Virus record (IMG/VR): IMGVR_UViG_3300031994_000020
DNA length: 64,000 nt
Direction: 5' to 3' (one strand)
Origin: a virus
Taxonomy: Duplodnaviria; Caudoviricetes
The notes beneath the pieces are model-generated. The model saw only the letters and a program-made list of their open reading frames with translations, was not told the DNA's origin and did not search any database. The position numbers and the translations under genes were made by a program. Every line of letters starts with the position of its first letter. The first letter of the stretch is position 1. Shown piece by piece: positions 2-23,931 of the stretch.

Positions 2-820
2 GGAGTTCTTGCTGCATTAGGGTTAGGGTCCGCCGCAACAAAAACTAATGGTCAAGATGCTATGATAACTCTTAATGGAGTTCAATTTAAATCAGACAAT
101 AATCACTTCGATATAAATGGTTATAGTATTGAGGCTAATTCAGTTGGTAGTACGACTATTAAGACTAAAACTGATGATAAGATTTTCGATACAATTAAAG
201 ATTTTATTGAAACATATAATACTTTAATTAAGAAAATTGATACAGCTTATAATGCAAGTAATAAGGGCTATAAACCATTAACTGATGAAGAAAAAGAAGT
301 TTTAAGTGAGAAACAAGTTGATGAATGGGAAAAAGTATTAAAAGATTCTGCTTTGTATAAAGATAGTTCTTTATATGAAATAAGTAACGTATTAAAGAAT
401 ACTATGAGTACCACATCTATTGATGGAATGAGATTATCTACAATAGGAATTAATCTTGGTAATTATTTTACCACAGATAAAAATGAGCGTGGAGTCTATA
501 CAATAGACGAAGATAAACTCAAAGAAGTTATTAATAAAGATCCGAATAAAGTAACTAATTTCATTACTAAACTATCAGCTAAATTATATGACAATATAGA
601 CAAGAAAATGAAGTCTACAAATTATAGCAGTGTTTATACTGTATATAATGATAAACAGATTAAAGCTGATATTGAAGATTATGATAAAAAGATTAAAGAA
701 TGGGAAAAGAAAATCGAGCAGATTGAGGATAAGTATTATAAGCAATTTGCTAAAATGGAAACACTTCTTTCTTCAAGTCAAAGTAAATCCAATTATTTCG
801 CAAGTTATTTCGGAATGTAA
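2..820 (+). CDS. fliD: Flagellar filament cap protein FliD, C-terminal part (5' truncated by window edge)
   Basis: Open from window start. GQDA-ITLNG, 'IKDFIETYN', 'YKPLTDEEKEVLSEKQVDEWE' and C-terminal coiled coil 'IEDKYYKQFAKMET' match clostridial FliD_C. Confidence 0.88.
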   Translation, partial: GVLAALGLGSAATKTNGQDAMITLNGVQFKSDNNHFDINGYSIEANSVGSTTIKTKTDDKIFDTIKDFIETYNTLIKKIDTAYNASNKGYKPLTDEEKEVLSEKQVDEWEKVLKDSALYKDSSLYEISNVLKNTMSTTSIDGMRLSTIGINLGNYFTTDKNERGVYTIDEDKLKEVINKDPNKVTNFITKLSAKLYDNIDKKMKSTNYSSVYTVYNDKQIKADIEDYDKKIKEWEKKIEQIEDKYYKQFAKMETLLSSSQSKSNYFASYFGM

Positions 821-866: not shown

Positions 867-2378
867 TTATGCAGTTATGGCTTCGTATCTCTTACTGAGA
901 AGTTTCTGAAGACAGAGTTCCCAGCCAGTCACACCAGTTATAACATTTTCAAAGATTACAGGTGAAGCACCACTTACGTAGGTTACACTTTCATCTTCAT
1001 CGAGGATTGTATTTTCTCTCGCCTGTACGTTCCAATAAATGAGCTTAGGCATCTTGTGACCGTGGCGTGCCCACTTCTCACGAACCTTAGCCATTTCTGT
1101 AGCTACAGGACGATTCTTATGTCTCCAACCATATGAGGTTCCCCAATCAGACATAGCATCAATTTCCATGTCAGAAATGACAACTATTTTCTCAGGTATA
1201 TCTTCTTCTTTTGTAGTAGGACGATCTGCTATTTCAAGAAGCATATCAAAAGTTCTTGTAAGGTCAGTATTCTCACAGAGGTTGGTTCTGTAGATACGTT
1301 CAACCTTATCAACGAAATCTGTTCCTCTTATCTCAATAAGCTGAGGTCTTGAGCTGAAGCTAATGTAGTGATTCTTAAAAGGACCTCCTGCTCTCTCAGC
1401 ACAGTACATACCAAGAGAGATAGCTATATTGATAGGAGCAGATGCTTCGTTACCGGTCATAGAACCTGAAGTATCTACAACGCAAAGCATATTGGACTGT
1501 TTTCCATTGAAATAATCCTTCTGATTATCCCAGTATTTCTCTATCATGGCTCTATCGGTTTCAGAAAGAGAAAAACTACTATTCCAATAGTCCATATGGC
1601 TTGTAGCCTTAGCCACGATCTCATAAGGATAGAGAGTAGCAGCATTTACAGTTGTACTTTCGCTCTTTGCAAACTCTTCATACTTCTTTGCTATGATGTC
1701 ACGTCTAGCAAATGCGTTCTTGTATATAAGTCCAGCCTTAGAGGGAATCTTATCAAATTCAATTTCATCCCATCTGTTTTCAGACATAAGTTTCTCTACT
1801 ATATTAATGCGGGCGCGCAGGTCTGAGAGAATTTTTCTATACTGTTTATGTGTAAGACCAAGGTAGTCCCGCACTTTATTACCCATAGCTATTGTTTCCT
1901 TAGAAGATGCGTTCTCTGAAGGAAGCCACTTTGCAAGTAAAGAAGGAGTCTTGCTTTCAAGATCAATAGCAAGCTGTTCCTTGATGAAATCAAGTGCATC
2001 CTTTTCAACCTTTGTGCCAAAGCAAGCATATACTACGTCATCCCAACGTCTATACTCAGGTATCTGCTTTATGAGTTTGCGGGCTACATTAGCGTACTTA
2101 TTAGCAAGCCAATTAAAGCATATTCTAAAATAGCGGCGTTCACCCTGACCACCACGACAGTCACCAAGATAAAAGAGGCACTTAAGAGCGAGATCTGCAT
2201 TTTCCTCATATGCTTCCTTGAAAAGCAGTATACAGTCCTCATTAGTTCTTGAACGATATGCTCCACCAAAAGCAAACATATCATAGACCTTCTTCATTGT
2301 TGAAGAAAGGGCTGTTCCTCCATTCTCAGTGAGCTTGTAATTTGCATCATTCTTCATTTCATTTAAAAAAGCGTTCAT
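867..2378 (-). CDS. DUF2828 / TROVE(Ro60)-like protein with C-terminal vWA domain
   Basis: N-terminal TENG motif, 'DCRGGQGER', 'RWDD', 'LLAKWLPSE', vWA MIDAS 'VDTSGSM', 'ISDMEID', 'IYWNV'. Confidence 0.85.
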   Translation of the reverse strand: MNAFLNEMKNDANYKLTENGGTALSSTMKKVYDMFAFGGAYRSRTNEDCILLFKEAYEENADLALKCLFYLGDCRGGQGERRYFRICFNWLANKYANVARKLIKQIPEYRRWDDVVYACFGTKVEKDALDFIKEQLAIDLESKTPSLLAKWLPSENASSKETIAMGNKVRDYLGLTHKQYRKILSDLRARINIVEKLMSENRWDEIEFDKIPSKAGLIYKNAFARRDIIAKKYEEFAKSESTTVNAATLYPYEIVAKATSHMDYWNSSFSLSETDRAMIEKYWDNQKDYFNGKQSNMLCVVDTSGSMTGNEASAPINIAISLGMYCAERAGGPFKNHYISFSSRPQLIEIRGTDFVDKVERIYRTNLCENTDLTRTFDMLLEIADRPTTKEEDIPEKIVVISDMEIDAMSDWGTSYGWRHKNRPVATEMAKVREKWARHGHKMPKLIYWNVQARENTILDEDESVTYVSGASPVIFENVITGVTGWELCLQKLLSKRYEAITA

Positions 2379-2418: not shown

Positions 2419-2628
2419 TTACATAGCCTTTAATTGTCTTAATTTTTTATAATAAACTGTTTCTAATTCAGACCTACTTATAATAATTTTCTGAAGAATA
2501 TTAAAACATTCTCTATCAAATGTGTTATATCCAAAAATTTTAAAATATTTATTTTCAACTCGTTTTAAAATATCAATACTTTTTAAAATTTGATTACATT
2601 CTTCATTTAATATTTTTCTTTTTCTCAT
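2419..2628 (-). CDS. hypothetical protein
   Basis: 69 aa ORF, coupled to the upstream gene (TAATG overlap). Confidence 0.55.
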   Translation of the reverse strand: MRKRKILNEECNQILKSIDILKRVENKYFKIFGYNTFDRECFNILQKIIISRSELETVYYKKLRQLKAM

Positions 2629-2891
2629 TATCTATTCCTAATTAATTCATCGTAGGTAATAGTTCCGCAAGTTGTGGTTTCGAGATCCGAAGCCCGCATT
2701 TCATAAACTCCATAGTTACTGCATGCATTTGTTATCTCTATTCCAGCAAAAGGATCTCCTTCTTGCATCTTCCGCGCCATACTATACTCTGCGAATTTCT
2801 GCATAAAGAAATTAATCTCTTCTTTTGAATTAAACAAGATTATTTTTCCTTTATGATGTAAAAATACATTATCAAGAATTACTGCTAACAT
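2628..2891 (-). CDS. hypothetical protein
   Basis: 87 aa ORF with AAGGAAG RBS. Confidence 0.65.
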   Translation of the reverse strand: MLAVILDNVFLHHKGKIILFNSKEEINFFMQKFAEYSMARKMQEGDPFAGIEITNACSNYGVYEMRASDLETTTCGTITYDELIRNR

Positions 2892-2908
2892 AGTTTCTTC
2901 CTTTCATA

Positions 2909-2981
2909 AGGGGTAAATAGGATTCGAACCCATGATCCTGGAACTGCAGTCCAGAGCCTTACCAGACTTGGCTACTACCCC
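2909..2981 (-). tRNA. tRNA-Cys(GCA)
   Basis: Cloverleaf GGGGTAG/TTACCCC, anticodon arm CTGGA-CTGCAGT-TCCAG, T-loop TTCGAAT, U73. Confidence 0.92.
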
Positions 2982-3100
2982 AAAAATAATGCCCCCGCAA
3001 AAGCGTTATTATAGCAATGTGCGAGGGCGTTTGTTAAGTAAACTATAAATTTAAGCCGGTATATTTGCTTTCCGTTACTTCTCTTTTTCTTATTAGTCTA

Positions 3101-3191
3101 AGGGCAAGAAAAAGATTTTCATAATTTATAGTTTTCTTTACAAAGTTATAATTTTCTTCTTTATAAGACTTGAAAATTTGCTGTTTGCCCT
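3101..3191 (-). ncRNA. ACAGCAA-stem small RNA (Y-RNA-like family, copy A)
   Basis: AGGGCAA-ACAGCAAA...TTGCCCT terminal stem. Confidence 0.55.
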
Positions 3192-3193
3192 AA

Positions 3194-3265
3194 AGCCCGT
3201 AACGGGAATTGAACCCGTATCCTCTGCTTGGAAGGCAGATATACTAGCCATTGTACTACACGGAC
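3194..3265 (-). tRNA. tRNA-Gly(TCC)
   Basis: TCTGC-CTTCCAA-GCAGA anticodon arm, full cloverleaf, U73. Confidence 0.92.
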
Positions 3266-3270
3266 ATTGA

Positions 3271-3478
3271 TGCCCTGTGGGAACCACCCTACGGCTCGGG
3301 GATCATTAGCCGGTATTTTTTATCTAGTCTTTGCATGACAAGTTGGCTGTTACTGTCGTGTTCAGCAGACGCTAATTCACTTTTGGAATTAGTAATGTCA
3401 CTCATATGACGGTGAGACCGAACAAAAGTTTCTGGTTAATGAGGCTTTGTCAGACCCAATATGCCAGCAACACAGGCA
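3271..3478 (-). ncRNA. Unidentified ~210 nt structured RNA between tRNAs
   Basis: GC-richer than flanks, closed by TGCCTGTG...CACAGGGCA, internal hairpins, no ORF. Confidence 0.45.
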
Positions 3479-4207
3479 AGCCGCCGGAGGGACTTGAACC
3501 CCCAACCCGCTGATTTGATTCTCAACTTAAACAAATCTCCTTTCCCAAATAAATCCATAAGCAGTATGTCTTTCATTTTTTAATACTTGACATATATGAC
3601 TATTATCACCGTTTACGGCTTTTGCTGCTTCAGTGGCAGTATCATATTCTGCTATAAAATTATGATCTTTATCAAATTGATAAATTTTCATTTTTACTTT
3701 AGGCTCAGGTTGATTATTAATTAATCTACTTAAAGTTTTTTCAGCTGTATAATTTTCAATAAAATATACATCAGCTTGATTTATTTTTTGTTCTTTGAAA
3801 GATAATGTTCTATTTGCGCCTTGACAATCTTCAATTTTTATAAGATAACATTGCCCATTCCAAAAAGTAGCAAAATAATCAACTTCATCAATATACTTCT
3901 TAGATTGCAATGCATGAGTTGTGTTACTTCCTTGAGTTGATCTAGTTGCAAATTCTATTCCTGTTTTAGATTGATTTTCATGGCAAGTTTTTATTTGAAT
4001 TCTAATTAATTTACCATTTATATCAGCTATCATATCATAACGACAATCTTCTCCCAAAGGAATAGATACATTATATCCAAGTTGAGTTAAATAAGTTTGA
4101 CATTGTAATTCTGTTACCAAACCTTTTTGTTTTGTTTCGTTCATTTAACATTTTATTGTTATCCATTGAGAAACAAATCAGCCGCTCTACCATTGAGCCA
4201 CGACGGC
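3479..4207 (-). tRNA. tRNA-Thr(TGT) split by a 657-nt insertion (5' part 4173-4207, 3' part 3479-3515)
   Basis: GCCGTCG..GCTGA-TT-TGT | insertion | AA-TCAGC..TTCAAGT..CGGCGGC rejoins into a normal cloverleaf. Confidence 0.85.
3527..4144 (-). CDS. PD-(D/E)XK homing-type endonuclease with C-terminal NUMOD1-like DNA-binding domain, inside tRNA-Thr
   Basis: 'KGLVTE..RYDMI..IRIQIKT..VDYFA' (PDDEXK_5-like), 'IYQFDKD..EYDTATEAA..TAYGFIW' (NUMOD1-like). Confidence 0.85.
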   Translation of the reverse strand: MNETKQKGLVTELQCQTYLTQLGYNVSIPLGEDCRYDMIADINGKLIRIQIKTCHENQSKTGIEFATRSTQGSNTTHALQSKKYIDEVDYFATFWNGQCYLIKIEDCQGANRTLSFKEQKINQADVYFIENYTAEKTLSRLINNQPEPKVKMKIYQFDKDHNFIAEYDTATEAAKAVNGDNSHICQVLKNERHTAYGFIWERRFV

Positions 4208-4217
4208 ATTTGGCGCC

Positions 4218-4526
4218 TTATGACGCCTGTTCAGTTACTTCAGTCTTTGCTTCCTGCTTCTTTGCAGCAGCTTCTCTATCTTTCTTTATTTTGATAGCCT
4301 GCTTAATAGATGTCTTACTTTTCAAGAGTTTATTGTCAAAAGCCCATAACAAATTCTCTTCTTTAGCAATTTTATCCTCATAAGCTTTATCACTTTCCGC
4401 TTTGAGACTATCAATAGATAAACTTTTTGTATTACGAATTGTGTTTTCAAAATGCTTTGTTACTTTTGTTGGTGTTGAAGGAGTTGTGTCCTTATTTGTG
4501 AAAATTGTTTTCCACCCTTTAGCCAT
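4218..4526 (-). CDS. hypothetical protein
   Basis: 102 aa, own sigma-A promoter and RBS. Confidence 0.7.
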   Translation of the reverse strand: MAKGWKTIFTNKDTTPSTPTKVTKHFENTIRNTKSLSIDSLKAESDKAYEDKIAKEENLLWAFDNKLLKSKTSIKQAIKIKKDREAAAKKQEAKTEVTEQAS

Positions 4527-4586
4527 ATATATTTCCTTTCTTTATCTTATATAAATATTATATCATATTTTTTTTAAAATGTCAAA

Positions 4587-4931
4587 TGGACTTGACGGGA
4601 GTCGAACCCGTGTCCGCGATTCCTATTCCAAATCAATTTTTTACGCAATAGTGTTTTAAAGTGTTCACTCACTGAGCCGACAGGTTATACCTGTTTAGTC
4701 CCACCACTTGTTTTTTCTAAAACAAGAAACTATATAGCCTTTCTTATAAGAGTGAGCATTGACTGGCAAAAGTATTACTCACAATTCCTAAACTCAAGCT
4801 GCAAGAGCAACTTTAGTAGGGAAAGAAACAATTTTCTTTGCGTTTATTTTAAATTAGTGATTGCATAACGCGCATATCATTTCGTGCGAATTGATTTTTT
4901 TATTGAACCTCGTCGAATACCTTACAAGCCC
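4587..4931 (-). ncRNA. ssrA: tmRNA, tag peptide (A)AKKIVSFPTKVALAA ending in TGA
   Basis: 5' GGGCTTGTAAGGTATTCGAC, resume context ATAAAC-GCA, tag ending ALAA, 3' GGACACGGGTTCGACTCCCGTCAAGTCCA. Confidence 0.92.
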
Positions 4932-5158
4932 TCAGATTCTTTAACAACTAATTGCTTATATATATCATGCAATATTGTTAATCTTTCATCAAATTTAGAT
5001 GTTAAAGTATTAAAATTGTTTCCTATAAGAGGCTCCCATTTAATATCAACATGACATCCAAGAAGTACTGCGGTTCTTATATCATTATATGATATAATCG
5101 CATTATTCAAAGCGTCAATTAATGTTTTTAAATTTTCAACTTCTAATTCTATTTTCAT
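4922..5158 (-). CDS. hypothetical protein
   Basis: 78 aa ORF, stop overlaps the tmRNA 5' end. Confidence 0.55.
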   Translation of the reverse strand: MKIELEVENLKTLIDALNNAIISYNDIRTAVLLGCHVDIKWEPLIGNNFNTLTSKFDERLTILHDIYKQLVVKESEGL

Positions 5159-5316
5159 AGAAACTTATTTTAAAAATTACTTGCTAAGATTACGAATTTC
5201 TCTGCGTAGTTTCTGAACCACACCACCGCTCTTAATATTCTTAGGATTTTCCATGAGTTTATTAAGTCTGTCCTTCTTTAATGCAAGTTTCTCTTCTTTA
5301 GTCATATATATCTCCT

Positions 5317-5616
5317 TTATTTTCTTTTAAAATCTTTTTCCCATTCATTTATCTATTCTTCAAAAGCATAATAATCACTAGGAGAATACCATCTTCTGCG
5401 TTTATTATAATTCTCTATCCATTCTTCTTTAGTGCATCTATTTATCCAATCATGTATATCATAAGAACAGAATATTTTTTTATATGCTTTACCTTTTTTG
5501 GGTAATTCTTCAAAATTAGTATTACGAACTTTTTTATTCGCAAACTTTTTCATTTCTTTTGTTGTCCCAGGGCTTCCATCTGTAATTACGGGATTATGCT
5601 TATAACTTCTGCTCAT
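5317..5616 (-). CDS. hypothetical protein (TAG at 5353-5355 read through)
   Basis: AFEE*INEWEKDFKRK-TAA; the extended stop abuts the next RBS. Confidence 0.65.
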
Positions 5617-5635
5617 ACTTTTATCCTCCTCTTAG

Positions 5636-5707
5636 CACAGGTACCGGGAATCGAACCCAGATCTAAGCATTAGAAGTGCCTTGTTCTCTCCATTAAACTA
5701 CACCTGC
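5636..5707 (-). tRNA. tRNA-Arg(TCT)
   Basis: AGGCA-CTTCTAA-TGCTT anticodon arm, cloverleaf. Confidence 0.88.
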
Positions 5708-5710
5708 ATA

Positions 5711-5782
5711 CACTCCCAGCGGGATTCGAACCCACAATGTCTGGTTCGTAGCCAGATAGTTTCTCCATTAGCTTACAGGAGC
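5711..5782 (-). tRNA. tRNA-Arg(ACG)
   Basis: TCTGG-CTACGAA-CCAGA anticodon arm, weak D stem. Confidence 0.85.
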
Positions 5783-5928
5783 AAATGACAGCTTATCGAG
5801 AACTGTCGACGCTGTAGTGTGGCTATATGCCCAAAGGATCCGGACCCACTCTTTAAATGATGGCGCCTCTCGACCAGAGCTACATCCTACAGAATTTTTC
5901 TCTATGCAGAAATTTCTAACTCCTGCAA

Positions 5929-6047
5929 ATATGCGGGTGGGAATCGAACCCACATGTATTCAGAGAACCAATGGCTTCACGGAATCGAACCGTGTCTGAA
6001 TTCCTTTCATGCCCTTGATAGCGTCTACCCATTTCCGCCACCGCATA
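5929..6047 (-). ncRNA. tRNA-like RNA with two T-arms and no recognisable anticodon arm
   Basis: TATGCGG/CCGCATA acceptor, Leu-type D arm, CACGG-TTCGATT-CCGTG and GTGGG-TTCGATT-CCCAC. Confidence 0.6.
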
Positions 6048-6049
6048 AA

Positions 6050-6121
6050 CTGAGGTGGCAGGATTCGAACCTGCGAATGACGGGATCAAAACCCGTTGCC
6101 TTACCACTTGGCGACACCCCA
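6050..6121 (-). tRNA. tRNA-Gln(TTG)
   Basis: U1-A72, ACGGG-TTTTGAT-CCCGT, G73. Confidence 0.93.
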
Positions 6122-6473
6122 ATATATCTCAGACTTATTGCTGCACCCAAGGTAGATATTAGGATAAGTCTGAAATATTAACAATTAATAATAATTAATA
6201 ATTAATAATTAATACACAGCTTTTTCTAAATAATATTAAATCTACTATAAATACCAAATCTACCGTTAGTATCATAGCTCATTTAATAGATAATGAAAGA
6301 AAAAGTTTTTAGGCGGGTTATAATTTAATTCTGCTAAACCAGAATAAACTTTTTCTTTTCTATTAAACGAGATTATATTCCCGCACGTTTACAATAGTTG
6401 CCATGAGATTGTATTAAGTTTAGTAATATCAATCTTTTACCTTATCCTTATTTTAAGGAAATACTATGGTAAA

Positions 6474-6547
6474 TTGGAGTGGCGGGATTTGAACCCACGA
6501 TCTCTTGAACCCAAATCAAGCGCCTTACCGAACTAGGCTACACCCCA
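6474..6547 (-). tRNA. tRNA-Pro(TGG)
   Basis: CTTGA-TTTGGGT-TCAAG, cloverleaf. Confidence 0.92.
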
Positions 6548-6553
6548 AAATAC

Positions 6554-6626
6554 AAGACACGCTACTATCTTTATCATTCTATAATATTGGCTGAATGTGA
6601 ATTAAAATTTTTGCTGTTTGTGTCTT
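6554..6626 (-). ncRNA. ACAGCAA-stem small RNA (copy B)
   Basis: AAGACAC-AAACAGCAAA...GTGTCTT, directly downstream of a sigma-A promoter. Confidence 0.6.
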
Positions 6627-6676
6627 TTTTAACTTTCTATAAATATTATACCATATTTTTTTATAAAAGTCAAATA

Positions 6677-6988
6677 TTAAAAATAATCACTGATTTTTTC
6701 ATTACAATATTTTTCTATAAAACCTTGTGGATCTTTATAAATTTCATCATTAAGTTCGTTCAATGATTTAAAAGTTTCTTCTGTAAAAGGATAAACTTCA
6801 TATGCAACGTGTTCTTCGCAATTGTAATCTTCATCTTCATCCTCAAGAGCATAACTTTGCATAACATCATAACTCATTTGCTCTGCTATTATATTAGCAT
6901 CTTCTTCTGTTCCTTCTACAACAGCAAAAGAATTTATCCCATGAAGTCCTCCAAAAGTATCTTCATAAGCACAAATTGCATATAACAT
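6677..6988 (-). CDS. hypothetical acidic protein
   Basis: 103 aa, promoter and RBS upstream. Confidence 0.7.
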   Translation of the reverse strand: MLYAICAYEDTFGGLHGINSFAVVEGTEEDANIIAEQMSYDVMQSYALEDEDEDYNCEEHVAYEVYPFTEETFKSLNELNDEIYKDPQGFIEKYCNEKISDYF

Positions 6989-7101
6989 ATTTATTATTTT
7001 CTCCTTTCTTAACTTTATATAAATATTATATCATAAATTTTTTAAAAAGTCAAGGGGCGGGAACGGACCCAATCCTAAAGATCTCAGAACCGGGTTCCCG
7101 C

Positions 7102-12747: not shown

Positions 12748-12873
12748 ATATGCCGTGCGGAACGGAAGCTAAGTCGACTCGAACAGACCACGGCTATCTT
12801 ATATTATTGAGGTTTTTATATAAGACTTAAGTCGATTTTACTAGAGTTAACCTCAATACCTCTAGAGCGATAG

Positions 12874-12991
12874 ACGGAAGGACGAGACTCGAACTCGTAT
12901 CATCAGGCCCCCTAAGCATTATAATAATTGCTGTACAAGAATATATCTAATCTCTTTTATATACTGCGCTCTACCATTAAGCTACCTTCCG
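12874..12991 (-). ncRNA. tRNA-like RNA whose anticodon arm is replaced by an ACAGCAA-containing insert (copy E)
   Basis: CGGAAGG/CCTTCCG acceptor, canonical D and T arms, ~60-nt insert containing TACAGCAAT. Confidence 0.65.
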
Positions 12992-12993
12992 CG

Positions 12994-13085
12994 CAGGAGC
13001 TGTAGGACTCGAACCCACACCCGAGGCTTTGGACACCTCTGTCCCGGTTTTAGAGACCGGTGTGCTGCCATTACACCAAGCTCCC
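12994..13085 (-). tRNA. Amber-decoding tRNA (anticodon CTA), tRNA-Trp paralog with long variable arm
   Basis: CCGGT-CTCTAAA-ACCGG; acceptor GGGAGCT/AGCTCCT-G; T arm identical to the adjacent tRNA-Trp; 25-nt variable region. Confidence 0.93.
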
Positions 13086-14961: not shown

Positions 14962-15133
14962 CAACTAGTTATTATCATTCAGGTGGTAGGTATTTCAGAC
15001 TCTCACCGTTATTGATTAGCCTACTCTTTTATTTATCGGATTTCTGTCAACCCTATTATTTTTTATTGCTTTCTTAACTTTCTATAAATATTATATCATA
15101 TTTTTTTATAAAAGTCAAATATGATTTTTAAAC

Positions 15134-15482: not shown

Positions 15483-15555
15483 TTCTCATTCTGGGAATCG
15501 AACCCAGTCTCCAACCCTCTTTAGGGTCGGGTGCTTCCCATCACACTCAATGAGA
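15483..15555 (-). ncRNA. tRNA-like RNA with 8-nt anticodon loop
   Basis: TCTCATT/AATGAGA acceptor, D and T arms, CGACC-CTAAAGAG-GGTTG. Confidence 0.6.
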
Positions 15556-16180: not shown

Positions 16181-16343
16181 CAGAAGTCTTATTAACTTTT
16201 TATCTTATATAAATATTATATCATATTTTTTTAAGAAAGTCAAATTTTTTATTTTCTTTATTTTATTTTCCTTTCTTAACTTTCTATAAATATTATATCA
16301 TATTTTTTTATAAAAGTCAAATATGATTTTTTAATAAAGAATA

Positions 16344-16628: not shown

Positions 16629-16741
16629 AGATGCTGCGTTAGTTTAACGACCAACCCCGCAGCTAGTTGTCCAATCTACCGCGAAAATATAAGATAAATG
16701 AAAATATTTTATTTTCTTCTTTCTTTATCTTATATAAATAT

Positions 16742-16768
16742 TATATCATATTTTTTTATAAAAGTCAA
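16742..16768 (-). promoter_or_regulatory. Sigma-A type promoter driving the tRNA cluster (example of a motif repeated dozens of times)
   Basis: TTGACT-N17-TATAAT with extended TG; near-identical copies at ~4560, 6650, 7030, 15095, 16220, 16295, 18095, 20530, 22780, 23890, 28735, 29995 and throughout 33-49 kb. Confidence 0.85.
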
Positions 16769-17775: not shown

Positions 17776-18057
17776 TTATAGATTAAGTCTTTCCATTAAT
17801 GATGCAACTTCTTCTTTCTCTTCTTTTGTTATTTCTGTTGATGTAGTGTCTACTTTAGCTGTGCTTGTAGTCTGACTAGGAGCAACCCCTCCCGCATCTA
17901 CATTCACTTTCGCGCAAGTACAAGCTATTTTTATTTGTACTTCTTCCCCATTCTCTATGAAGGGAATCCTTACTTCTTTATCGTACTTAAAACTTCCTTC
18001 AAATGTATCAAGTATCTTCTTTATAATTTCTTCTTTAGCGATAGCGCCTTTAGCCAT
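17776..18057 (-). CDS. hypothetical phage protein
   Basis: 93 aa, promoter and RBS. Confidence 0.8.
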   Translation of the reverse strand: MAKGAIAKEEIIKKILDTFEGSFKYDKEVRIPFIENGEEVQIKIACTCAKVNVDAGGVAPSQTTSTAKVDTTSTEITKEEKEEVASLMERLNL

Positions 18058-18126
18058 TATTCTTCTTCCTTTCTTTATCTTATATAAATATTATATCATA
18101 AAATTTTTAAAAAGTCAAATGTTCCC

Positions 18127-20469: not shown

Positions 20470-20622
20470 AATAATTTTCTCCTTTAATATTGTGTTTTAG
20501 TTTTTTATTTACTTTACTTTATGTATTTATTATATCATATTTTTTTAGGAAAGTCAAATTTTTTATTTTCCTTATTTTATTTTCCTTTCCTTACTTTCTA
20601 TAAATATTATAGCATAATTTTT

Positions 20623-22500
20623 TTAATATGTCAAAAATTTTATTTCATCAATTATTTTAGATGATTGACTTCTATTGAGCTTATATACATCTTCTGATGC
20701 ATATAATGATGTAAACATGTCTTTATTACTATTCTTCAAATTTATATATCTAAATTTCTCAACGTCATTAAATGACTTTGCACCTGGATTAAAAAATTCT
20801 ATTTTTATCTTTCTTTGAGTACCGAATTCATCTTTTTCAACAGTGCCAATTTGAAGAGCACCTTCTTCTTTTAGATGCTTTCCACATTCTTTACATATAT
20901 AAAGAGACTCTGCATTATCTTTATATAATTTTTCTGCTTTTTCTTGTCTTATTTCAACTCCGGATACACACCTAAAAAAATTATTTAAAGATAGCATTTC
21001 TGAATCTTTAATTAAATAAGGCGCGGTTCTAGTAATATATACATTATCAAAATCTTCTACCCATATAGAAGCTCCACAACAAGGGCAGATTTTAGCATAT
21101 CTTTCATAGCATTTTGAACATACTCTTATTTTTTTATCATCTACTATAATGTATTTATAATCTCGTAAAGGAGTTCCAGTGGAACAGCAGTGGCAAGTAA
21201 AATCCCTTGCACAAGATTCGCAAACTACAGATCCTGTATTTGCAAATCTATCATTATAATTAGGATAATCATAATCACAATCCCAAGTAATAATTTCTCC
21301 ATTGCATCTTACGCAATTACATTTTCCACTTACAGAGATAACTTTATTGCCTGTTACCTTATTTCTAACACACCAATATTCATAATCATTGTCATTAAGC
21401 ATATCATTATACATACCTTTAGTATCCCATATAATATTATGCTTATTTCCACCAAATCTAGCCCAATTTTTATTACGATCCATTCTATTAAAAGAGTTTA
21501 TATGGATCATATCCTTGTATCTCTCAATACCATATTTATATTCCCAATTTAAATTTTCTTTTGCCAGCTCCCGCGCAAAAGTAAGCAGTTCTTTACTAAC
21601 TTTTTCATTATAATAAGGATATGATTTACCTGTCATAATAATGTTTTTATTGGTATAAACTAACTGCCGCCATTTTTTATTATTCCAAGTTCTTTCTGCG
21701 GGATCTGATATATTTATGTTTTCACCTGAAGTACGATTTGCCTTGGTTATAAAATCCCATTCATCATTACCTTTTGAAGACATAATATATCCGCAAAGGA
21801 CATTATTAGAGTTCATCATTTCGACGGTCCCTACATGGTAGCATCCTTTTTCAATCCAAGACATACAAGAGGTCCAAGAGAGACCATTATCACTCATTGT
21901 CATATAATCAAGAGGATGTATAGAAAGACATAATTTCCCCTTAATTATTTTATCATTGAGAACTCTTGAATGAGCAAGTCTAAATTCTTCAAAATATTCA
22001 GGATGCCAATCCCATTCCTTATCAAAATAATTGATAATTTTCTGAAGTGCTTTCATAGGTTTCGTCCCTATAGGGATCTGAAGCATCTTTGCGAAAGGAT
22101 TTTTTCTATATTTTATTCCATAAGCTATCTTATCAGTAACAAAATTTTCTACGTCTGTTAAATGATTAAAGAAACGAACATCTTCATCAGAAAAAGACTT
22201 GGACTCTTTTACAAAATTCCAATAAAAACTCTTATAATCACTTCTAAAAGCACTTTCAAAATAGAGGTTATACATTTCCTGCTTAATAGCATCTAAAGGC
22301 TTTTCATAAAGATAGTCTTTTTCTGCAATTAATTTGTTACCAAGTAACTTATATAACTTCTGATTAGAATGACTCCACTGTTCAAGCCACTTCTCTAATC
22401 CAATAAAATTCTTCTTATTAATACTTGTAGTAAAAATATAGTTTTCTATTTTCTTCTTATCAACATCAGATAACTTGTCTATTAAATTAATATAAGCCAT
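20623..22500 (-). CDS. Large conserved phage hypothetical protein with Cys-rich C-terminus
   Basis: 'LSIHPLDYMTMSDN..WTSCMSW', multiple CxxC; start taken at MAYIN after a GGAGG RBS. Confidence 0.7.
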   Translation of the reverse strand: MAYINLIDKLSDVDKKKIENYIFTTSINKKNFIGLEKWLEQWSHSNQKLYKLLGNKLIAEKDYLYEKPLDAIKQEMYNLYFESAFRSDYKSFYWNFVKESKSFSDEDVRFFNHLTDVENFVTDKIAYGIKYRKNPFAKMLQIPIGTKPMKALQKIINYFDKEWDWHPEYFEEFRLAHSRVLNDKIIKGKLCLSIHPLDYMTMSDNGLSWTSCMSWIEKGCYHVGTVEMMNSNNVLCGYIMSSKGNDEWDFITKANRTSGENINISDPAERTWNNKKWRQLVYTNKNIIMTGKSYPYYNEKVSKELLTFARELAKENLNWEYKYGIERYKDMIHINSFNRMDRNKNWARFGGNKHNIIWDTKGMYNDMLNDNDYEYWCVRNKVTGNKVISVSGKCNCVRCNGEIITWDCDYDYPNYNDRFANTGSVVCESCARDFTCHCCSTGTPLRDYKYIIVDDKKIRVCSKCYERYAKICPCCGASIWVEDFDNVYITRTAPYLIKDSEMLSLNNFFRCVSGVEIRQEKAEKLYKDNAESLYICKECGKHLKEEGALQIGTVEKDEFGTQRKIKIEFFNPGAKSFNDVEKFRYINLKNSNKDMFTSLYASEDVYKLNRSQSSKIIDEIKFLTY

Positions 22501-22744
22501 TATGTTTCCTCCGATAATAGTCTTCAATATTTTTATTTAGTATTCTTACATCTTCATCAAGTAAATCATCTTCATTTATATCAAGTTCCCGCAATACTTT
22601 AGATATAACAACATTAGGATCATATCCTTTATCTATATATTTGCGGAATTCCTTTATTAATCTGTCCCTGGCTGCCGCGGACGAAATCGCCATTGACTGG
22701 AAACCATTGCCAGGGTCCAAATTCATAAAATCTACATTAAACAT
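22487..22744 (-). CDS. hypothetical protein
   Basis: Start MFNVDF after promoter/RBS. Confidence 0.65.
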   Translation of the reverse strand: MFNVDFMNLDPGNGFQSMAISSAAARDRLIKEFRKYIDKGYDPNVVISKVLRELDINEDDLLDEDVRILNKNIEDYYRRKHNGLY

Positions 22745-22824
22745 AATATTTCCCCTTTTTTCATTTTCTATAAATATTATATCATATTTTTTTATAAAAG
22801 TCAAAGTGGCTTAGCAAAGCCACT

Positions 22825-23700: not shown

Positions 23701-23931
23701 TATTATACCTCTCTCCACTCCTCTGCATAATCTACAATCATCCAATTACCATTGCAAGTTCCTATTTCACCGAATTTCACATCATCTGTAATAATCATTT
23801 TTTTCTCTCCTGTTAAGAGATTTCTCAAGAAGTAGTACCGTATATATATCATTTCTACAACACCTTCTTTCTTTATCTTATATAAATATTATATCATAAA
23901 ATTTTTAATAAGTCAAAAAAGAAGGATGGTA

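Follow-up and report, generated by a model that had tools for sequence, protein, structure and literature searches.

Introduction

It is generally held that the introns of bacteria and their phages splice themselves, and that protein-dependent splicing of tRNAs belongs to archaea and eukaryotes; to our knowledge, no protein-dependent tRNA splicing has been known in bacteria or phages. The archaeal introns that bear homing endonucleases are folded into a bulge-helix-bulge (BHB), spliced by EndA and joined by RtcB. In phage T4, SegB is a free-standing homing endonuclease of a tRNA cluster, and Pnkp and Rnl1 reseal tRNAs that a defence nuclease of the host has broken in the anticodon loop without the loss of any sequence. 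The tRNA-fMet gene of Synechocystis PCC 6803 contains a group I intron of 655 nt, with a 150-aa ORF that encodes I-Ssp6803I (PMC1995217). Unexplained introns, termed the first in phage tRNAs, were also described in the Lak megaphages, Thr(TGT) included (Devoto et al. 2019, PMC6784885).

The locus presented here lies in a stretch of 64,000 nucleotides, hereafter the window, which is part of a 146.6-kb phage contig and carries approximately 24 tRNA genes and a tmRNA on its minus strand. One of these genes, for tRNA-Thr(UGU), is interrupted after the anticodon by an insert with an endonuclease ORF (Table 1), and the nearest known relative of this insert is the I-Ssp6803I intron of Synechocystis, with which it shares a PF11645 nuclease, a position in the anticodon-loop region of a tRNA, a near-equal length and the logic of targeting a pseudo-palindromic anticodon arm. 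However, the Synechocystis intron keeps a group I ribozyme of some 200 nt, whereas the window insert has only 39 non-coding nucleotides (28 in the 5′ flank and 11 in the 3′ flank), lacks a terminal G, does not follow the P1 G.U rule and matches no ribozyme model.

In architecture, the insert most resembles the archaeal endonuclease-bearing BHB introns, which also lack a ribozyme and place the ORF in the loop of a long stem, of which both junctions are part, with pseudo-twofold splice sites, and in both cases a separate ligase would be needed. Unlike these introns, the window insert has no 3-nt bulges, its central helix is of 3 bp rather than 4, it lies at position 36/37 rather than 37/38, and it resides in a bacteriophage (a tmRNA is encoded), while EndA (PF01974) was not found in the complete genome of Enterococcus phage EFP01, which bears a related insert, or in two partial contigs. 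A BHB intron was ruled out by the continuous duplex (0-1 mismatch), and a BHB forced at 36/37 breaks the register of the anticodon stem.

The “enigmatic” introns of the Lak phages also occupy phage tRNA genes, such as tRNA-Thr(TGT), and are conserved inserts left unclassified by Rfam, but the one in the Lak tRNA-Thr was reported to be short, perhaps with the shape of a tRNA, and neither an endonuclease ORF nor an anticodon-pairing rod was described for it (PMC6784885). The free-standing PF11645 genes of phages BCP12, CP14, Pylo, phi-pp2 and K54 are of the same family and are found in tRNA arrays, on the tRNA strand, abutting the next tRNA, although they sit between intact tRNA genes, while the window nuclease is inside an anticodon loop, with a helix that spans the junctions. 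A kinase/phosphoesterase/ligase set comparable to the Pnkp and Rnl1 of T4 is encoded ~6-10 kb from the window intron, and the participation of such repair enzymes in its removal would be a conjecture by analogy. No published description of an endonuclease-bearing, anticodon-pairing tRNA insert, or of its removal, was found in a literature search. As described below, the window insert is one of a class of intervening sequences that is widespread and mobile in phage tRNA genes, contains no ribozyme and has a conserved RNA rod.

Architecture of the Split tRNA Gene

A preliminary description of this DNA had placed an insertion of 657 nt directly 3′ of the anticodon of a tRNA-Thr(UGU), with an ORF of 618 nt and flanks of ~28 and ~11 nt, and both the coordinates and the anatomy were confirmed. 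Taken by itself, the window sequence leaves the splice point ambiguous, and the gene is called as SeC(UCA) by ARAGORN when introns are permitted. A scan of IMG/VR returned 39 loci with the same word of D arm and anticodon arm, more than 30 of which are intron-less tRNAs that read ...GCTGATTTGTAATCAGC, i.e., Thr(UGU), and this homology rules out the SeC or opal-suppressor reading. When the insert is taken out between U36 and A37, the implied exon-exon junction is ...GCUGAUUUGU joined to AAUCAGCGGGUUGG, and a clean tRNA-Thr(UGU) of 72 nt with all 21 of its 21 stem pairs intact is obtained, so that the identity first given to the gene stands, on both the intron-less homologues and the clean product of the removal.

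Table 1. Features of the split tRNA-Thr(UGU) locus in the window, related inserts, and nearby candidate genes for cutting and sealing.
Feature	Location	Strand	Remarks
Split tRNA-Thr(UGU)	4207..3479	minus	72-nt tRNA with a 657-nt insert between U36 and A37; 729-nt precursor
5′ exon, tRNA-Thr(UGU)	4173..4207	minus	35 nt; ends ...GCUGA-UUUGU; anticodon UGU = 4175-4173; assigned by homology to intron-less Thr(UGU) tRNAs
Intervening sequence	3516..4172	minus	657 nt; starts UUCUCAA, ends UUGAGAAUCA; terminal G absent
Homing-endonuclease ORF	3527..4144	minus	205 aa plus stop, 618 nt
3′ exon, tRNA-Thr(UGU)	3479..3515	minus	37 nt; first base A37; starts AA-UCAGC, then continues to the matching acceptor strand
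Rod, 5′ strand	4165..4182	minus	Anticodon stem (5 nt), U32 U33, anticodon U34 G35 U36, intron +1..+8
5′ splice site	between 4173 and 4172	minus	
Rod, 3′ strand	3509..3526	minus	Intron -11..-4, tail UCA (3518-3516), A37 A38, 3′ strand of the anticodon stem
3′ splice site	between 3516 and 3515	minus	
Relatives in tRNA-Thr(UGU)	L040, L041, L055, L045/L050, L049, L046, L056		
Relative in tRNA-Gln(UUG)	L057		
Relative in tRNA-Asn(GUU)	Enterococcus phage EFP01 (KY549443, L058)		Cultured phage; 463-nt insert
RNA ligase	~5.8 kb from the intron		416 aa; PF21189+PF09414 (Pfam labels)
KTI12/AAA_33 kinase, two metallophosphoesterases, PIN_4+PhoH protein	With the ligase, 1-8 kb before the window start, ~4-11 kb from the intron		Pfam labels

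The Helix across the Junctions

The junctions had been described as extending the anticodon stem into a long helix, and its parts, i.e., GCUGAUUUG/CAAAUCAGC, a U.U mismatch and UUCUCAA/UUGAGAA, are all present. In the window, intron positions -11 to -4 pair with +8 to +1, and the last three bases of the intron face the anticodon (A-1:U34, C-2:G35 and U-3.U36), which gives a rod of 9 bp, the U.U mismatch and 8 bp. When the 729-nt precursor is folded, this rod is kept in both the minimum-energy and the centroid structures, together with the acceptor, D and T arms.

The same pairing is found in all 11 members of the family, in which positions +1 to +6 or +7 of the intron pair with -9 or -10 to -4, the last three bases with positions 36, 35 and 34 of the anticodon, and U33 with A37, so that the rod and the anticodon stem make up a continuous duplex of ~17 bp with no more than one mismatch. 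After 6-8 bp, helix A usually ends in an A.A or G.A mismatch. The helix is beyond chance, given that the junction pairing has a family mean of 9.0 of 10 pairs in its own register, against 3.9-4.9 in slid registers, and helix A has 6-7 of its 7 positions paired within each member, in comparison with 3.9 of 7 when strands are combined across lineages. Four to six types of pair occur at each of the positions +3 to +6, and the tail is UCA, ACA or ACU for the anticodon UGU, CAA for UUG, and AGC for GUU. Judged by this comparison of the members, the rod is conserved and covarying in the family. The paired positions include nine G.U and no A.C, which argues that the pairing is selected in the sense-strand RNA rather than as a repeat in the DNA.

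The 5′ and 3′ splice sites are on opposite strands of the rod, 3 bp apart, and given this stagger, cuts at both sites would leave a 3-nt 3′ overhang which is the anticodon itself. The 3-nt tail and the exact start of the helix are, however, the geometry of any unbroken helix across an insertion at 36|37, and are not independent evidence of precise cutting.

Search for a Self-Splicing Core

The lack of a self-splicing ribozyme, claimed on the basis of the short flanks, was borne out by the searches of Rfam, which gave no match to group I, group II or any other ribozyme at E up to 10 in window positions 2500-7000, nor at E up to 5 in nine relatives, and no group I core was found overlapping the ORF. 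Both boundary rules of group I introns fail in the family, given that the last intron base is never G (A in nine members, U in one and C in one), and that the 5′ exon of the Gln member ends in G. In addition, synonymous differences are found along the whole ORF, in 36 of the 151 codons for identical residues between the window and L040, and in 52 of 156 between L045 and L049, which indicates that the ORF has no long stretch conserved as an RNA.

A group I intron was ruled out by the absence of a core match, the 28 + 11 nt of non-coding sequence, the boundary bases and the synonymous changes through the ORF. A group II intron was rejected on the basis of the UUCUC...AUCA ends, which are not GUGYG...AY, the absence of a match in Rfam, and an ORF that is a PD-(D/E)XK nuclease.

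The Endonuclease and the Mobility of the Inserts

The cleavage performed by I-Ssp6803I leaves 3-nt 3′ overhangs. The protein encoded by the insert matches PF11645 over positions 2-136 of the 138 in the profile (E=6e-21), which is the model of the Ssp6803I family (PMC3424549), whose nucleases bind pseudo-palindromes (PMC3384342). It also matches the I-Ssp6803I structure, PDB 2OST (E=1e-5), in an alignment that takes in the ...YD..D...Q.K... stretch, and the residues of this catalytic stretch are invariant across five orthologues. By its core, motif, Pfam model and structure match, the ORF is assigned to the I-Ssp6803I / PF11645 homing endonucleases. The combination of PD-(D/E)XK and NUMOD1 domains that had been proposed for it is firm in its first part (aa 3-133, PF11645 and 2OST), but the NUMOD1-like C-terminal DNA-binding module (aa 152-201) is borderline, with 22.5 bits against a cut-off of 22.8. 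The orthologues in other split tRNAs are from 74% down to 36% identical, and further relatives of the nuclease are the free-standing genes mentioned above.

The ORF is intact in all 11 members, although that of L056 is open only under TAG recoding. This ORF (L056:1201-1968) has five in-frame TAG codons ahead of a TAA stop, and the same contig has a CUA suppressor tRNA at L056:807-885, so that this mobile nuclease gene uses the recoded genetic code of its phage, to which it has adapted.

The relatives were found by protein and protein-alignment searches, except for EFP01, which came from a tblastn against cultured phages. Besides that of the window, ten distinct inserts of this kind were recovered, and the split gene is tRNA-Thr(UGU) in eight of them, tRNA-Gln(UUG) in another and tRNA-Asn(GUU) in the last. 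All 11 are inserted at 36|37 with the ORF on the tRNA strand, and the sequence freed of the insert is called as the expected tRNA. In the ten members whose ORF was called from an ATG, the flanks measure 19-30 nt and 10-14 nt, and the short members, of 463-470 nt, have ~40 nt outside an ORF of 140-143 aa. No version without an ORF was found inside a tRNA among the at least 117 pattern matches listed, and in short Logan contigs, screened for excised RNA of the window phage, only ordinary genomic copies were seen. This phage is present in the runs SRR9006654 and SRR9006655.

The insertion point in EFP01 is fixed at U36|A37 by its exons, which do not differ from the tRNA-Asn annotated in phage iF6. 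The search for intron-less alleles that had been recommended returned none for the exact tRNA of the window in IMG/VR, but was successful in the case of EFP01, where the tRNA-Asn is uninterrupted in 29 sister Schiekvirus phages. The introns of L041 and L055 are 93% identical, while their exons are only 61% identical, and this contrast, together with the presence/absence polymorphism around EFP01, shows recent lateral movement. On this distribution, the insert is a mobile element, as the preliminary description had supposed.

Candidate Enzymes for Cutting and Sealing

The neighbourhood of the ligase in the window phage was read from the contig gene table and its Pfam labels, over ~21 kb. Of the two enzymes that it had been suggested to look for in the genome, RtcB and an RNA ligase, the latter was found, as the PF09414+PF21189 ligase (Table 1), but no RtcB was seen in the ~21 kb of the gene table. 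EFP01, by contrast, carries RtcB (140344-141453), which is variable among its sister phages, and has no PF09414, PF09511, EndA, PIN_4 or PhoH. No phage accessory (EndA, PIN_4, PhoH, Rnl1 or Rnl2-type) is common to the intron-bearing phages examined. Given this, a ligase is present in both of the genomes checked, and the only phage-encoded cutter that they share is the nuclease of the intron itself.

Housekeeping RNases and PD-(D/E)XK nucleases leave 3′-OH/5′-P ends, which RtcB cannot join. As RtcB is the only ligase found in EFP01, the end chemistries fit no one simple scheme. The mimicry of a tRNA end for RNase P or RNase Z was rejected, given that the tail is paired with the anticodon rather than being an RCCA-like single strand, that position -1 is often paired, and that a cut after the discriminator-like base would leave a 9-nt loop. 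The stagger of RNase III is 2 nt, and this enzyme was discarded as the exact splicer because such a stagger would give a loop of 6 or 8 nt.

Removal of the Insert or Loss of the tRNA

With regard to the fate of the interrupted tRNA, the best reading is that trans-acting enzymes cut out the insert and reseal the tRNA, a process whose chances appear to be evenly balanced on the sequences that were compared. In this process, the tRNA operon would be transcribed, and the intron ends would fold with the anticodon arm into the ~17-bp rod, both strands of which would be cut at the junctions by a trans-acting endonuclease of the host or the phage, which might even be the nuclease of the intron. An RNA ligase would then join the anticodon-bearing 3-nt overhang to A37, and this enzyme would be the Rnl-type ligase with its kinase/phosphoesterase neighbours in the window phage, and RtcB in EFP01, and the products would be tRNA-Thr(UGU) and a released intron that acts as the mRNA of the endonuclease. 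At the level of the DNA, the endonuclease would cut intron-less tRNA genes at the pseudo-palindromic anticodon arm, which would allow the insert to spread.

The more specific version of this proposal, i.e., a protein-dependent and ribozyme-free splicing of phage tRNAs in which a rod without bulges is cut with a 3-nt stagger and sealed by a phage Rnl or RtcB, is a tentative reading of the sequences, to which we give somewhat less than an even chance. In its boldest form, the cutter may be the PD-(D/E)XK nuclease of the intron, given that the rod copies in RNA the left half and the centre of the pseudo-palindromic DNA target of this enzyme. If the insert is indeed cut out and the tRNA sealed, a widespread ribozyme-free intron in phage tRNAs would break the division of the domains into self-splicing and protein-splicing, and the phage RNA ligases and RtcB would gain a routine substrate besides the repair of damage. 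It could also bear on the origin of BHB-type introns from endonuclease-carrying elements. As one member of the family is from a cultured phage, Enterococcus phage EFP01, the question of splicing is directly testable at the bench.

The main rival to cutting and sealing is insertional inactivation, in which a selfish homing-endonuclease cassette would have destroyed a dispensable tRNA gene, with no tRNA-Thr being made from it, and we regard this as the less likely of the two, albeit a reading with several observations in its favour. None of the 11 members has decayed exons or a decayed ORF, despite the divergence of the nuclease to ~35% identity, with 0-1 mispairs in the 21 bp of the exon stems in ten members, EFP01 being judged by its identity to the tRNA-Asn of iF6. 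Lateral transfer into unrelated tRNA-Thr genes can, nevertheless, keep the exons fresh-looking, and since L041/L055 and EFP01 represent fresh invasions, intact exons need not mean function. The comparison of the window with L040 is more difficult to accommodate in a destroyed gene. In this case, the homology (79.8% over 736 nt) extends precisely from one end of the tRNA gene to the other, and the exons have diverged as much as the intron (83% and 79% identity, respectively) in ways that only preserve the structure, including that of the acceptor and D stems, which are outside the rod. The 12 exon differences create no mispair and consist of four double compensatory changes (at acceptor 7-66, in the D stem and at two pairs of the anticodon stem), a change of U.G into C-G, and three sites that are unpaired; 12 random substitutions left all the stems intact in only 0.065% of trials (P=6.5e-4). 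Phages can usually dispense with their tRNAs, so that an insert can stay in place unspliced; EFP01 is viable while carrying one, and its 29 sisters have an uninterrupted tRNA-Asn. The free-standing relatives of the nuclease between intact tRNA genes (phi-pp2, K54, BCP12, CP14 and Pylo) indicate that the family needs no intron, and the absence of a shared splicing accessory in the intron-bearing phages examined is also as expected of inactivation. The rod would then serve the cassette only, for instance as a processing site for RNase III or another enzyme, or as a clamp between its two ends by which the endonuclease mRNA is released from the tRNA operon transcript and stabilised, for which the ready-made anticodon stem would be the cheapest base of a continuous duplex of ~17-22 bp, but the tail is re-tuned to each new anticodon, which counts against this reading. 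If the tRNA is sacrificed, the family would still offer a clear case of a parasite of phage tRNA genes, a homing endonuclease whose expression is served by a conserved RNA rod of its own making.

It is much less probable that the insert is a cryptic or new type of self-splicing RNA, with a core that overlaps the ORF, or with the rod as part of an unrecognised small ribozyme, perhaps one that cleaves and leaves the joining to RtcB or Rnl. The group I ribozyme in the Synechocystis tRNA-fMet intron, the nearest known relative, which is of almost the same length (655 nt; PMC1995217), speaks for such an RNA, as do the 2′,3′-cyclic phosphate and 5′-OH ends that its cleavage would give, which are those used by RtcB and the heal-and-seal systems. 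However, ten inserts gave no covariance-model match, there is no terminal G, the 5′ splice site has no obligatory U, and the ~40 nt outside the ORF in the short members, together with the synonymous substitutions throughout the ORF, count against a hidden core. Both splice sites, furthermore, lie in a regular duplex, which is a poor geometry for in-line attack. Scarcely credible is a feature of the DNA only, i.e., 17-bp terminal inverted repeats or a by-product of the repair of a staggered cut, in place of an RNA helix. The two junctions do read alike in inverted orientation in the DNA, and pseudo-palindromes are bound by this nuclease family (PMC3384342), but the nine G.U and absence of A.C form an asymmetry expected only of sense-strand RNA, and the fill-in of a staggered cut would duplicate the anticodon directly rather than give its reverse complement. 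A target-site duplication or DNA inverted repeat was ruled out by this asymmetry and the reverse-complement tail.

Other Features of the tRNA Arrays

The tRNA array of the window is flanked by a FliD-like C-terminal ORF (2-820, plus strand) and a DUF2828/DUF7788 (Ro60-like) gene (867-2378, minus strand), and a flagellin gene is also found in the gene table of the contig. The phage-encoded tmRNA (4587-4931, minus strand; Rfam 80.8 bits), with the tag peptide AKKIVSFPTKVALAA, is ~380 nt upstream of the split tRNA. With introns allowed, ARAGORN also calls a Thr(GGU) and a Phe(AAA) tRNA (5929-6047 and 12873-12991, both on the minus strand) with inserts of 42 and 34 nt, respectively. The 42-nt “intron” of the former itself contains a T-loop-like GGTTCGATTCC, and both calls resemble small RNAs derived from tRNAs more than tRNAs with introns. 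An amber-suppressor-type tRNA with the anticodon CUA and a long extra arm (12993-13085) and a tRNA-like gene with a four-base anticodon call, AAAG (15483-15555), are found on the same strand.

An element of ~50-90 nt is repeated in more than 12 copies in the window, mostly in the intergenic spaces of the tRNA region (4534-4585, 6624-6673, 6962-7054, 15057-15118, 16259-16320, 16712-16768, 18055-18118, 20573-20634, 22735-22804 and 23864-23916, among others). It is also present at L040:5608-5696, with 80-90% identity, in a contig that is otherwise non-alignable to the window, and its role could be that of a promoter, terminator or processing signal common to both.

In three other IMG/VR contigs (L002, L014 and L022), the 5′ part of a tRNA-Thr(UGU) passes the anticodon loop and then enters unrelated sequence, and these may be attachment-site remnants or other types of intron. 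A weak, sub-threshold HDV-like match (RF02682, 27.1 bits, E=0.26), probably due to chance, begins one base past the 3′ end of the split tRNA-Thr of L049 (L049:1058-1146). Finally, a YrlA (Y RNA-like) match of 42.8 bits, below the threshold of 69 bits, is found in the cluster that holds the split tRNA-Gln (L057:412-524), and a ROOL RNA (264.8 bits; L058:2433-3019) lies ~460 nt downstream of the split tRNA-Asn of EFP01.
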